Below, piece after piece: positions 7,402-12,260 of a stretch of 64,000 nt of DNA. The DNA comes from Escherichia coli (GTDB taxonomy: Bacteria > Pseudomonadota > Gammaproteobacteria > Enterobacterales > Enterobacteriaceae). Positions within the stretch are counted from its first letter, which is position 1, and the number at the start of each line of letters is the position of its first letter. Under the pieces are notes generated by a model. The model saw nothing but the letters and a program-made list of their open reading frames with translations. It was not told the DNA's origin and did no database searches. The translations under genes were made by a program, and so were the position numbers. Location: the NCBI RefSeq assembly GCF_003018235.1, contig NZ_CP027437.1. One strand, given 5' to 3'.

Positions 7402-7408
7402 TAAAAGA

Positions 7409-7440
7409 ACCCGAAGCCAGAACGACTGGCTTCGGGTGTT
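7409..7440. terminator. Hairpin terminator between convergent ygiD and dsbI
   Basis: Perfect 12-bp stem ACCCGAAGCCAG / CTGGCTTCGGGT. Confidence 0.5.
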
Positions 7441-7446
7441 GCTGAG

Positions 7447-8118
7447 TTAGCCTCTGATGATTTTAAGCGCCCATGCGCCACTCATAATGACCAGCAGCAC
7501 CAGACACATACCAAAAGCCAGCATACAAGCCTGAGCCATATTCATAAAATGCCATGGTGGTAGCAGATACCAGCCTTCAGATTGCTGATACATTTCCACA
7601 AACCACTGTTGCGTGCTGCTCAGTGTGACGCCATCAGGAACGATTGGTGCGTCATAGCCACAATCCCCGGTAGGCTTGAACCAATTTGGTGCCCACTGTG
7701 CCAGCGGCAGGTTAAAGGGAAAAGTTGGATCGGTAGAGCACCCCTGTACGCCAAACAGTGAATCGGGATCCGGATTATGTACTGCATGGTGGATATCGTT
7801 CAGTTTGAGCGAAAACTTCAGTCCCAAAATGCTGCCGTAAAATGCCATCACGCAGCCAATTAGCTTTAGGATGATGTTCTTTGGGTTGATCGCTGCAACC
7901 AATCCTCCAATAACCATCACAAACATGGCGTAGCGAATGTATACACATTGCTCACAGGGTGCCATGTAGAGATAGATCTGGAAAAAAGAGTGCGCCAGGA
8001 TAATTAACGCGCCCATCGCAATGGCCATTAACAACCACAAAAAACGTTGTTCTTGCCATCTTACCAGCGTGTCCACCGGTGAAGTGCGAAGGTCTTTCCA
8101 CATTCCCTTAATACCCAT
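7447..8118 (-). CDS. dsbI: DsbI, DsbB-like membrane thiol oxidase
   Basis: 223-aa multi-TM ORF with CxxC-type cysteines, last gene of the assT-dsbL-dsbI operon. Confidence 0.85.
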
Positions 8119-8132
8119 AGCCTGTTTCCCTG

Positions 8133-8801
8133 TTATTTGCTTGCTAACTCGCGGATAAGGTCTGCCATTGAGTCAATAGATTTAATACTCTTGGTGTAGA
8201 TCAGGTATTTACCATTGACGACATACGCCGGAACGCCCTGGATTTTTGCAACTTCATAAGAGGCTTTCCATTTTTCCAGCGTTTCCTGAACTGCAGGCTC
8301 TTTCAGCGCGGCTTCAAAATCGGCCTGACTCATACCTGCGGCGTCCAGTCCGGTTGTGATAAAGGCAGCCGGATCTTTACCATCAGACCAGCGTTCTTTT
8401 TTGTCATGATAAGCCGCGTAATAAGCAAACTTGGCTTTCTTAAACTGAGAGTTAGCATCAAATAATGAAATACCTGCTGCTTTATCTTTATTGATCAAGA
8501 CCGCAAAGACTTCGCTTGCTTGTTTGCCGTATTCACCTTTTGTTTCCAGATGGAATGGAGTAAAAGCAACGATATCTTTCACTTTTTCCGATACCGGACC
8601 GGTAACCGCTTTGTCGTACTTGTAACAGAACGGGCAGGCGTAGCTAAATACCTTAATCAGCGTTTTGTCGGCATTCGGAATAGGTTTTTCCAGAACCATG
8701 TAATCCGTGCCTTCGGTAAATGCAGAAGCGGTAAATGAAACAGCCAAAGCTGCGGTAAGCAGTATGGTTTTAAATAGTGATGAGATCCCTAATTTCGACA
8801 T
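8133..8801 (-). CDS. dsbL: DsbL, periplasmic DsbA-like thiol:disulfide oxidoreductase
   Basis: 222-aa ORF with signal peptide and CPFC active-site motif. Confidence 0.85.
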
Positions 8802-8818
8802 TTTTATTCCCTTCTTAA

Positions 8819-10615
8819 TTATTTGAACATCTGTTGTGGACGGACTAACAGTGCACGATAGTGAGTCTGATTGGGTTTATCTGACAGCACGTCGATTTCC
8901 ACTTTCACTTCTTTGGTTTTGTAATCGATTTCGTTCAACTTACCGACGGTTGGCTGCCCGACATCGAACAAATGAATAGAACCACCGAAGCCAAACATGG
9001 TGTTACGGTCGGCTTGATATTCAATGATGGAGGTAATCGGGCTATAGAAATCGTAGCCACGTTCTTTACCGTATTCCCACACTTGCTGAACGGTGCCTTT
9101 CTTCTCATCAATCTTATATTCCACAAAGCGGGAGTATTTCATGGTTGGTAAGGCAGGTTGTTCCAGATGACGCCCATCGCCATTATCAAAAATGGTGAGC
9201 GTTCCTTTGCTGGAAATCCAGGCGGTATGCTGGGTGTAGGTAAAGTCGAAGTCTGAGTTTTCGCACAGGCCATTTTCGTTACAGGTAATTGGCTTACCGT
9301 TAGCATCAACCGGTTTCAGCAGCTTGCTGGCCAGCGGTTTTTCCCAACCTTTAGAGGGCGCAAGGATCCATTTCACTTGCTTATCACGACCAATTTTCAC
9401 AACACCCTGGTGGCGAGAGGAGAGGATGATTGAGTCGTCTTTTGCGTCATAGGCGATTGAGTTAACGTGCGCCCAGTTACGACCTGGCCCTACACCCAGC
9501 GCGTCGCCGAACGGTGTATCTGGTTCCAGTTTTGCCTGTTGTCCTGCATGGGCAAGGTCAACGTTAACGCAAACTGCACCTGCATCCAGCGCGCCGAGCA
9601 GTGCATCGCGTTTCGGATCGAGGATCTTGGTCAGATCCCATACATCGACAACGCGACCAGATTTATCGACTTCGAGGATATGGTCACGAATGGTGGTGAC
9701 GTGTACGCCGTCATCGCGACGATAGTTACTCTTACCTACGCGCAACAGTACCGTGCCATTTGGCATCTCAATGGACTCATGAGTAGCGTCAGCAAATCCG
9801 CGCGGTAGTTTGTGATCTTCGAGCACCTGCCCCATCATGTCGAACTCGTACCAGTGCTGACCTTGTACAGCGGTAAAGGTGCCGCGTGGCGTTTCGCGGA
9901 TACCCATCAGATAACCACGCTTGTTGATATCGCGGTCACGACCATCGTAGAAAGTGTCTTGATCCAGCCACCAGCGGTATTCACCTTCGGTATCGACGAT
10001 GAAAGTAAAGGGCGCGATATCAAAAGGTAGTGCGCCGGTTGCCGGACCCGCATCAAGGATACCGGCATTTTTATCTTTCTCACCATGCCAGTGGAGATCG
10101 GAACCTTGGGCGGTAAAGGTGTGGGTATTAACCAGATAGAGGCGATCTTCAAAACCCGGTGCGACTTTAATAACTTTGGTCTGTTGTAAATCGGAGATAG
10201 AGCGGTTATCCATGTAATTATTGACGATGGCCGAAGTGTGCACCACATAATCATCTTTCATGACCTTGCCGTTTTCTTTCCACTCAACGGTCACTTTGTT
10301 AGCAAATTTCTGATAAAGACCAAAAATCGGTACACCATCGTAAGTTTTTAGTGATTCCTGACCCACGGGATAGCTGATTTCTACGCCTTTTTCGCCCTTC
10401 CCATGGACGGTAACTTTGACGTCAGAAATAACATGGCTATCTAAGTCAACCAAAGCGGTCAGTGGTGCATTGCCGTAGGGATCGACAATGACCGCACCCA
10501 GTTGCCCGGCAGGCGGTGCGGGTTTAAAACCTGCTGCCATCACCCCCGGTGCTGACAAACCCAGAGTTATCGCCACAGCTCCGGCTACCAGAGTTTTTCT
10601 ATATTTATCAAACAT
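8819..10615 (-). CDS. assT: AssT, periplasmic arylsulfate sulfotransferase
   Basis: 598-aa ORF with signal peptide; matches the ASST family; first gene of the three-gene operon. Confidence 0.9.
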   Translation of the reverse strand: MFDKYRKTLVAGAVAITLGLSAPGVMAAGFKPAPPAGQLGAVIVDPYGNAPLTALVDLDSHVISDVKVTVHGKGEKGVEISYPVGQESLKTYDGVPIFGLYQKFANKVTVEWKENGKVMKDDYVVHTSAIVNNYMDNRSISDLQQTKVIKVAPGFEDRLYLVNTHTFTAQGSDLHWHGEKDKNAGILDAGPATGALPFDIAPFTFIVDTEGEYRWWLDQDTFYDGRDRDINKRGYLMGIRETPRGTFTAVQGQHWYEFDMMGQVLEDHKLPRGFADATHESIEMPNGTVLLRVGKSNYRRDDGVHVTTIRDHILEVDKSGRVVDVWDLTKILDPKRDALLGALDAGAVCVNVDLAHAGQQAKLEPDTPFGDALGVGPGRNWAHVNSIAYDAKDDSIILSSRHQGVVKIGRDKQVKWILAPSKGWEKPLASKLLKPVDANGKPITCNENGLCENSDFDFTYTQHTAWISSKGTLTIFDNGDGRHLEQPALPTMKYSRFVEYKIDEKKGTVQQVWEYGKERGYDFYSPITSIIEYQADRNTMFGFGGSIHLFDVGQPTVGKLNEIDYKTKEVKVEIDVLSDKPNQTHYRALLVRPQQMFK

Positions 10616-11067
10616 GGATATATCTCCTTATATAACGCAAATATATAATAATGATGAATATCGACTGTTGAGAGGGTGCTAATAAATTCGTTGCGTGAAT
10701 ATAAATATTAATTCAATAAAGAGTGAGAATGCTTTTGTGTTTCTTTTAAATATGTTGTTATCCGGTGAAACAAATATTTATGTTTAATGGATAGTAGGGG
10801 GGCAATATATCATTCACAATGTTCAATATTGTGTAGTGTGATCTCTGCAACATTGTTTTTTAATTATTAAATTTAAATCTGGTGAGATAAAAGTAAAGTA
10901 TTTAAATAATATCAATTGGTTATGTCGTGAAGTGTTCACTTACTTTAATTACAATATCGCTTGCATATGACGATTTAACATTAAATTGAATGTTAATGTT
11001 AAATAAAGGTTGGATATGTATGTGTTTATATATTGATGGGAATTATGAATGGTGGATTATAAGAGAT

Positions 11068-11090
11068 TGCCCCGCTTATCGGGGCAATAT
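11068..11090 (-). terminator. Hairpin downstream of ygiC
   Basis: Stem TTGCCCCG / CGGGGCAA with 5-nt loop just past the ygiC stop. Confidence 0.4.
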
Positions 11091-11099
11091 TAAGCTGCA

Positions 11100-12260
11100 T
11101 TATTCAACAAAAATATGCGGATAAAACCGAGACATATCCTGGGTGATCAATGCACGGTCTTCACGAATGCCAATTCCGGCAGGTTGATCGTTCACCAGCC
11201 AGCTACCAATCAGCATATAGCTGTCGCCAAATTTCGGTAACGGGTGGAATTGCTGAACAATCATCCCTTCTTCGCCATACGGACCTTCCGCTGCTTCAAT
11301 GGTTTTGCCGTTCTCAATGATCGACACGTTTGCGCCTTCACGGGAGAAGATCGGTTTAACCACATATTTTTCCATTTGCGGATGATCATCTTCCGCAAAA
11401 TAAGCGGGCAGCAGGTTCGGGTGATTCGGGAACATCTCCCACAACAGCGGTAGAAGCGCTTTGTTGGAGATAATGCTCTTCCACGCCGGTTCCAGCCAGC
11501 GTACGCCTGCATCCTCCAGCTTGGTGGAGAACATCTCACGCAGCATAAATTCCCACGGATACAGCTTGAACAGGTTAGAAATCACCTGATCTTGTAAATC
11601 CGTGAACTGACCTTTTTCGCCTAAACCGATATCGTCGATGTAGAGGAATTCAGTAGCGATTTCAGCTTCTGTCGCGCAGTCCTGCAAATACTGGATGGTT
11701 CCGCGATCTTCCACCGTGTCGCGACAGCAGGTGAGATGCAGCAACTGGAAGCCATACTGTTCACGCAACTCGACAAAGCGATCGATTAGCTTTTCTTGCA
11801 GACTGTTAAACTGGTCGCTGCCTTCCGGCAGGTTACCGGCGTTAAGCTGATCTTCCAGCCAGATCCACTGAAAGAATGCGGCTTCATACAGTGACGTTGG
11901 CGTATCGGCGTTATTTTCCAGAAGTTTAGGTTCGCCAGTACCATCCCACGCCAGATCAAGACGCGAATAAAGCGATGGCTGGTGAGTCAGCCATGACTGG
12001 CGCACAAAACTCCAGGTGTGTTTTGGAATGCGGAATTTGGTCATCAGCTCATCGCTGGCGATCACTTTTTCAACCACTTTCAGGCACATCTGGTGCAGTT
12101 CGGCGGTGACTTCTTCCAGCTTTTCAACCTGGGCGAGGGTCAACTTGTAGTAAGCATCTTCACACCAGTACGGTTCGCCGTACATGGTGTGAAAATTGAA
12201 ACCGTATTCGTGGGCTTTTTCGCGCCAGTCCGGGCGCTCGGTAATACTGACTCTTTCCAT
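11100..12260 (-). CDS. ygiC: YgiC, glutathionylspermidine synthase-like ATP-grasp protein
   Basis: 386-aa ORF matching E. coli YgiC. Confidence 0.9.

Follow-up and report, generated by a model that had tools for sequence, protein, structure and literature searches.

The window, the 64-kb stretch of Escherichia coli DNA that was analysed, carries the genes ygiD(+), dsbI, dsbL, assT, ygiC, ygiB and tolC in this local order, with an AT-rich spacer between assT and ygiC (Table 1). The bounds of the spacer are exact, running from the assT start codon, which is the reverse complement of 10613-10615, to the ygiC stop codon, and both genes lie on the minus strand. The names assT and ygiC were taken from the annotation of an E. 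coli genome that is identical across this region, and assT is annotated in RefSeq as WP_000459855.1 in a strain with identical DNA. In E. coli K-12, just 37 bp with an unrelated hairpin separate ygiC from ygiD, so the window holds a 3.7-kb segment absent from K-12 (7402-11099) that comprises dsbI, dsbL, assT and the spacer.

Table 1. Features in and around the assT-ygiC spacer, in window coordinates and in the direction of assT transcription.
Feature	Position	Strand	Remarks
ygiC, 386 aa	11100-12260	minus	Upstream gene; its transcript is predicted to end within the spacer
Whole AT-rich spacer	10616-11099 (484 bp)	minus	Proposed assT-dsbL-dsbI regulatory region and ygiC 3' end signals
Stem-loop UUGCCCCG-AUAAG-CGGGGCAA	11067-11087	minus	Begins 13 nt past the ygiC stop
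Distal blocks CATCAATATATAA; TTTATTTAACATTAA; AATTTAATGTTAAATCGTCATATGCAAGCGATATTGTAATTAAAG	11026-11038; 10993-11007; 10943-10987	minus	From the alignment of 7 Escherichia spacers
CRP-like 22-mer CAATGTTGCAG-AGATCACACTA	10834-10855	minus	Centred at about -60.5 from the projected distal start
Distal -35, TTGTGA	10814-10819	minus	Counterpart of TTGTTC preceding the mapped S. Typhimurium start
Distal -10, TACTAT	10791-10796	minus	17-nt spacer from the -35; TAGTAT in allele B
Predicted distal start	10784	minus	An A, 7 nt past the -10; projected from SL1344 start 3375044; 169-nt leader
Variable AU-rich part of the leader	10689-10783	minus	About 65-75% identity between alleles A and B
Proximal promoter region	10649-10688	minus	AATTTATTAGCACC at 10675-10688; -35 TTATTA at 10680-10685; -10 GATATT at 10657-10662
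Predicted proximal start	~10649	minus	34-nt leader; constrained alignment to S. Typhimurium primary start 3375170 (-50..+1)
Short 5' UTR	10616-10648	minus	Shine-Dalgarno AAGGAG at 10624-10629
assT, arylsulfate sulfotransferase, 598 aa	8819-10615	minus	First gene of assT-dsbL-dsbI; proposed to be controlled from the spacer

An earlier note on this DNA had pointed to about 480 bp of strongly AT-rich sequence upstream of assT, and the composition bears this out. The spacer has a G+C content of 28.7%, compared with 50.7% across the window and 49-50% in the flanking genes, and is the most AT-rich 484 bp of the 64 kb; the 96 of 63,517 windows of this size that are equally or more AT-rich each overlap it. 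The many A/T tracts that the note had described are also present, as 22 A/T-only runs of at least 6 nt, and the spacer is a several-hundred-bp AT-rich, TpA-rich stretch of the kind seen in H-NS-silenced promoter regions. Of two short repeats quoted, AATGTTAATGTTAAAT was found at 10989-11004, where it belongs to a perfect 12-nt inverted repeat (arms 10973-10984 and 10993-11004), but TTAAATATTAATT has no exact match, the actual sequence being ATAAATATTAATT at 10701-10713. A check for curvature came out negative: AA/TT periodicity at 10-11 bp was below the shuffled mean and the A/T tracts lack helical phasing, hence there is no simple sign of intrinsic curvature. Within the cluster, assT (49.2% G+C) and dsbI (48.1%) are near the genome average, and dsbL (8133-8801) is the most AT-rich gene at 43.6%, with local windows down to 38.5%.

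The spacer evolves quickly, with 79% identity between two E. coli alleles and 63-65% to more distant Escherichia lineages, and it is mostly unalignable with other genera; conserved islands stand out against this background. The island closest to ygiC is a G+C-rich, covariation-supported hairpin with a stem of 8-9 bp. Folding of the surrounding 71 nt gives -17.7 kcal/mol (z -2.74), and in six Escherichia lineages 100% of the cells at its 8 aligned pairs are paired, with compensatory changes at 3 of them. There is no U run directly after the stem, where the tail reads AAUCUCUUAUAAU, and a terminator scan returned 0 terminators. From this sequence evidence, the stem-loop is the probable terminator of tolC-ygiB-ygiC, insulating assT from read-through; alternatively, termination here may be weak or assisted by a factor, or the hairpin may serve to stabilise RNA. 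A second G+C-rich hairpin, CCCGAAGCCAG-AACGA-CTGGCTTCGGG, lies at 7410-7436 between the convergent stops of ygiD and dsbI (7402-7446), at the other edge of the segment absent from K-12, and is probably a bidirectional terminator. The distal blocks spanning 10943-11038, which include the 12-nt inverted repeat, are conserved in Escherichia only and were not found when sought in the Citrobacter and Salmonella spacers. They are candidate sites for nucleoid proteins or a regulator, and since only the left arm of the inverted repeat is invariant, a symmetric operator is unsupported.

Two islands closer to assT have the appearance of promoters. Five Escherichia lineages share the 57 nt directly before the ATG (10616-10672) without a single difference, although identity in their genes is only 91-93%, and TATATAAGGAGATATATCC near the ATG is common to Escherichia, Citrobacter and Salmonella. 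Further upstream, a 105-nt block can be aligned gap-free across 18 sequences drawn from five genera (Escherichia, Pseudocitrobacter, Citrobacter, Salmonella and Intestinirhabdus) and follows the pattern AAAACAATGTnG-N4-GATCACACT-N15-ATTGT-N18-TACTATC. Its spacing is fixed, GATCACA is invariant, and AAAACAATG, ATTGT and TACTATC are each kept in at least 80% of the 18. The distal -10 reads TACTAT in 13 of these sequences, with T1, A2, A5 and T6 present in all.

Transcription start mapping in Salmonella allowed both islands to be anchored. Differential RNA-seq of S. Typhimurium SL1344 in early stationary phase yielded two starts for assT (Ramachandran et al. 2014, Table S7, PMC3963941). The primary start precedes the ATG by 36 nt and has a -10 of TATATT, and the secondary start precedes it by 162 nt, with a -50..+1 sequence ending in ATTGTTCTTAAAATATCACACTCCTACTATCGACTCA (PMC3963941). 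This secondary start sequence is the promoter predicted from the conserved distal block, with TACTAT at -12..-7, and the two starts project to 10784 and ~10649 of the window. The two best-conserved blocks of the spacer thus coincide with the two mapped Salmonella starts, which upholds the earlier suggestion that the assT promoter lies here, and we infer from the alignments that E. coli assT is transcribed from the same starts. As expected of a sigma-70 promoter, the distal hexamers are 17 bp apart and the homologous Salmonella start follows TACTAT by 7 nt. At the proximal promoter, E. coli has the weaker -10 (GATATT, against TATATT in Salmonella), and the shared -35, ATTTAT, would require a 19-nt spacer. 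A scan for consensus promoters returned none on the assT strand, because the hexamer pairs match at only 7-8 of 12 positions (distal 8, proximal 7). An unconstrained local alignment had placed the SL1344 primary start at 11019-11069; this match, in AT-rich sequence, was spurious, and the syntenic alignment was used instead. In S. Typhi, assT reportedly has multiple starts that vary with medium and LeuO, and the two sense starts of SL1344 agree with this.

No structure beyond that of shuffles was detected in the 200-nt assT leader (z +0.31). In Citrobacter amalonaticus and Intestinirhabdus alba, the leader carries an insertion of ~130 nt, located ~40-180 nt upstream of the ATG, with ERIC-like ends (AATAATTCGAATTGC... 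...GAAATATGACGAGTATA) and a G+C-rich palindromic core, which lengthens it from ~170 to ~310-325 nt.

Upstream of the distal -35, the conserved block contains a CRP-like site that is ungapped in the 18 sequences of five genera, with TGTTG as its left half and an invariant TCACA as its right half. Its position corresponds to class I spacing, and its centre would fall at -61.5 if transcription began 1 nt further downstream. Two key bases, G and A, are missing from the left half (TGTTG or TGTCG). We judge it possible, at odds a little short of even, that CRP activates the distal assT promoter, because the invariant TCACA half and the class I spacing favour it, yet matches to the core (TGTGA-N6-TCACA, 2 mismatches) occur in the window at chance frequency, with 28 found versus 27.4 expected. 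The only GATC (Dam site) of the spacer, at 10840-10843, lies inside the invariant GATCACA and is present in 18/18 sequences; one GATC alone gives no hint of a phase-variation switch, but its methylation could influence binding. A further GATC occurs elsewhere in the family, within an FNR/CRP-family-like palindrome, ATGATTT(C/T)GATCAT, located ~126 nt upstream of the distal assT start. This palindrome is kept in Citrobacter, Salmonella and Intestinirhabdus (nine loci) at a fixed 74 nt upstream of GATCACA, is shortened in E. albertii, and is absent from both E. coli alleles.

Within E. coli, the spacer is present in 1508 of 5426 complete genomes (28%), always together with assT, and it occurs in two discrete alleles that are 79% identical (~21% apart), with no genome between 80% and 95% identity. 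Conversely, all 1508 assT-positive genomes contain the spacer, so the conservation across such strains that the earlier note had made a test of its idea was found. The spacer and assT 5' end are present twice in one of the 1508 genomes, and one of 1510 spacer places is on a plasmid-typed record. Allele A, the type of the window, occurs in 1246 genomes, including ST131, S88 and APEC O1, and allele B in 262; the latter is nearest to the E. whittamii spacer, at 88%. In an allele-B strain, assT and ygiC match the window at 99-100% identity as far as the start and stop codons, and the allele breakpoints coincide with the conserved 57 nt and the ygiC end. The window strain itself is a mosaic over 10016-11099: its spacer is allele A and 97% identical to that of ST131, but the 5' 600 nt of its assT agree with an allele-B strain at 99.3% and with ST131 at only 91%. 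Sorted by identity, the assT 5' ends of the 1508 genomes form at least three classes (261, 698 and 546 genomes). A spacer at 79% identity versus 99-100% for the genes, sharp boundaries and a bimodal identity distribution are the marks of intergenic allele switching, and the pattern is that of known intergenic allele replacement by recombination. Both alleles retain the core elements (in allele B, TGTCG, TTGTTA and TAGTAT), so a functional difference between them is unproven.

We read the spacer as the cis-regulatory region of assT-dsbL-dsbI, combining an end signal for ygiC, two promoters and a default off state, and assign this reading a probability of roughly 0.78. Transcription of tolC-ygiB-ygiC would stop at the conserved stem-loop shortly past the ygiC stop codon. 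assT would then be read from two weak sigma-70 promoters: the distal one (~10784) would produce an unstructured, AU-rich leader of ~169 nt and carries the CRP-like site near -60.5 in the geometry of class I activator dependence, and the proximal one (~10649) would produce a leader of ~34 nt with a strong Shine-Dalgarno sequence. The default state is most likely off through coating by H-NS, because both hexamer pairs are poor and are embedded in ~480 bp of TpA-rich DNA with 29% G+C. Expression would require an antagonist or activator under special conditions, a role filled by LeuO in S. Typhi and to which cAMP-CRP possibly contributes.

Published work on related clusters is consistent with conditional silence. 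The orthologous S. Typhi cluster is repressed by H-NS and activated by LeuO (reviewed in PMC4264507), and the chromosomal assT of uropathogenic E. coli (UPEC) CFT073 is reported to be unexpressed in standard conditions, with upregulation in urine from infected mice (PMC7810732). By analogy, H-NS silencing of the E. coli spacer is plausible but indirect, and we infer H-NS binding, as well as CRP and LeuO action, at this spacer. The literature searched contained nothing usable in the way of CRP, H-NS or start-site data on E. coli assT, and no inducing signal for the gene turned up in it. Homology between the E. coli and Salmonella spacers extends over only ~110 bp of core promoter and ~55 bp beside the ATG, and the LeuO and H-NS sites defined in S. 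Typhi are not transferable. The high-affinity H-NS motif TCGATAAATT (up to 2 mismatches) has no site within the spacer, and its window-wide count is at chance. Neither this missing motif nor the missing A-tract phasing weakens any model, and neither supports one.

A different regulator may bind the conserved upstream block, leaving the promoter without catabolite control, which we consider rather unlikely. The block may, for example, be the relic operator of a LeuO-family LysR protein such as those of Budvicia and Edwardsiella, now used by LeuO. The non-consensus left half of the CRP-like site (TGTCG/TGTTG) is itself conserved, conservation reaches past the CRP footprint into AAAACAATG and GATCACACT, and LeuO activates the S. 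Typhi cluster (PMC4264507). Comparison with distant genera adds to this. In Limnobaculum, Leminorella, Budvicia and Edwardsiella (loci L017-L020, L022, L023 and L053), a LysR gene encoding 327-333 aa lies divergent from assT, ~340-520 nt upstream of it (e.g. 2494-3477 in L019 and 2604-3605 in L022). Among NCBIfam models, BsrA matches its product best (128-131 bits) and LeuO second (95-104 bits), with near-full-length alignment to both. The region between this gene and assT contains a T-N11-A-type palindrome, TTATCTC-N5-GAGATAA, followed directly by CCTACTATC, a 9-mer that also makes up the distal -10 of E. coli and Salmonella. Against such a regulator, the right half of the block is a perfect CRP half-site at class I spacing from the start, and no LysR-type palindrome is recognisable in the E. 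coli block. Escherichia, Salmonella and Citrobacter lack the divergent LysR gene, and tblastn with the Budvicia and Edwardsiella proteins detected no remnant of it in the spacers or the whole window.

These observations can be joined into a history in which the E. coli assT promoter is an orphaned LysR-dependent promoter that LeuO took over, with the two spacer alleles differing in silencing or induction; as a whole, we regard this combination as improbable. The dedicated LysR protein would have been lost in the Escherichia-Salmonella-Citrobacter lineage, and its global paralog LeuO would have replaced it as anti-H-NS activator. LeuO control descending from a lost dedicated paralog is attractive but weakly supported. 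The alleles, of which A occurs in strains of B2/ExPEC type (ST131 and S88, for instance) and B elsewhere, may give different assT silencing or induction.

The AT-richness could instead be the passive scar of a recently transferred foreign island, with only a minimal constitutive promoter beside the ATG. The accessory distribution of the cluster, present in 1508 of the 5426 complete E. coli genomes and absent from K-12, which has a clean 37-bp ygiC-ygiD spacer with a different hairpin, fits such an origin, but we consider it very doubtful. The G+C content of assT is genome-like, and in a survey of one genome per species the same site between ygiC and ygiD holds the cluster in E. coli, E. whittamii, E. 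albertii, two further Escherichia lineages and Pseudocitrobacter, with assT divergence among the Escherichia lineages paralleling that of ygiC. The cluster follows zupT-yqiD in Citrobacter, Salmonella and Intestinirhabdus and lies in unrelated contexts in Budvicia, Leminorella, Limnobaculum and Edwardsiella, and the 500 bp upstream of assT are AT-rich in 23 of 23 enterobacterial loci from 11 genera (G+C 0.23-0.43 versus 0.46-0.57 for the gene). Furthermore, blocks distant from the ATG are conserved gap-free across genera, and UPEC assT is not constitutively expressed (PMC7810732).

Neither the foreign gene composition nor the incongruent phylogeny or synteny of a xenogeneic island is found for the assT cluster. 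The description of these genes as horizontally acquired is consequently doubtful, given an assT of 49% G+C at the same site in at least five Escherichia lineages and a divergence that parallels the flanking genes. From this genome-like assT, the parallel divergence and the AT-richness of all 23 loci, it follows that AT-richness is a conserved trait of the control region of an old, often-lost operon and is not a mark of recent import. Presence in 28% of E. coli genomes can be explained by loss just as well as by gain. Lin, Kim and Slauch (2009) are said to have found the operon ancestral in Enterobacteriaceae and repeatedly lost.

Lastly, it is most improbable that the length and conserved blocks of the spacer reflect an unannotated small RNA or small protein. 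The spacer of the window strain does contain four ORFs of 27-38 aa, a 44-aa ORF (10990-11124) spanning into the ygiC end, a plus-strand promoter-like site (10882-10910), and the perfect 12-nt inverted repeat among several conserved blocks, but across seven Escherichia spacers, comprising allele A, allele B and other lineages, no small ORF is conserved in frame, start or length, the single conserved-looking one overlaps the promoter block, which is itself conserved as DNA, and the promoter-like site sits in an allele-variable stretch. The small RNAs or peptides that the earlier note had allowed for were likewise not borne out at the RNA level: an Rfam scan of 10400-11300 (E up to 10) gave two chance-level matches (E = 4.3 and 7.9), far below gathering scores, the assT leader is unstructured relative to shuffles, and both Salmonella starts assigned to assT in the PMC3963941 table are sense.

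Overall, we explain the spacer as an ordinary promoter region, conditionally silent and shielded from read-through, in which specialists in H-NS/LeuO regulation will find nothing surprising. The new details are the two discrete spacer alleles and the divergent LeuO-family regulator gene of distant genera, absent from E. coli. AssT and its private DsbL/DsbI oxidase pair are enriched in extraintestinal pathogenic E. coli, and a base-level map with a probable terminator, two Salmonella-anchored promoters, a candidate CRP site and two natural alleles makes the "silent gene" testable. The analysis also corrects a common shortcut: AT-rich DNA here reflects conserved regulation of an old operon, not recent foreign origin.

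Among known systems, the closest is the orthologous operon of S. Typhi, the assT cluster (J Bacteriol 194:2254, 2012, via PMC4264507). As in E. coli, an AT-rich upstream region of ~400-480 bp precedes assT and the gene is silent in rich medium, and more than one assT start is used, as is predicted for E. coli; the distal core and the proximal promoter with its Shine-Dalgarno sequence are homologous by comparison with S. arizonae and the S. Typhimurium start table. In contrast, the cluster follows zupT-yqiD in Salmonella and Citrobacter but lies between ygiC and ygiD in E. coli, the Salmonella spacers are alignable to that of E. coli over only ~165 bp, and Salmonella and Citrobacter possess the extra ATGATTT(C/T)GATCAT palindrome missing from both E. 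coli alleles. Control by H-NS and LeuO is established for S. Typhi and would apply to E. coli by extension only.

The wider class of H-NS-silenced, LeuO-antagonised enterobacterial promoters includes ompS1, casA of CRISPR-Cas, bgl and yjjQ-bglJ. The assT spacer resembles these in its long AT-rich, TpA-rich upstream DNA, weak core and laboratory silence and, in the Salmonella ortholog, in its LTTR anti-silencer. Unlike at those promoters, the structural genes of the assT operon lack this AT-richness, which would restrict any H-NS filament to the spacer. Class I CRP-dependent promoters of the lac P1 type carry their CRP site at -61.5. The distal assT promoter similarly places a 22-bp site with a perfect TCACA half at -60.5, upstream of a weak -35, but the left half-site is poor and the centre is 1 bp off. 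Finally, intergenic "regulatory switching" has reportedly been described in E. coli (Oren et al. 2014, PNAS 111:16112). The two discrete assT spacer alleles between genes that are 99-100% identical mirror that phenomenon, with the difference that the core promoter elements are kept in both.
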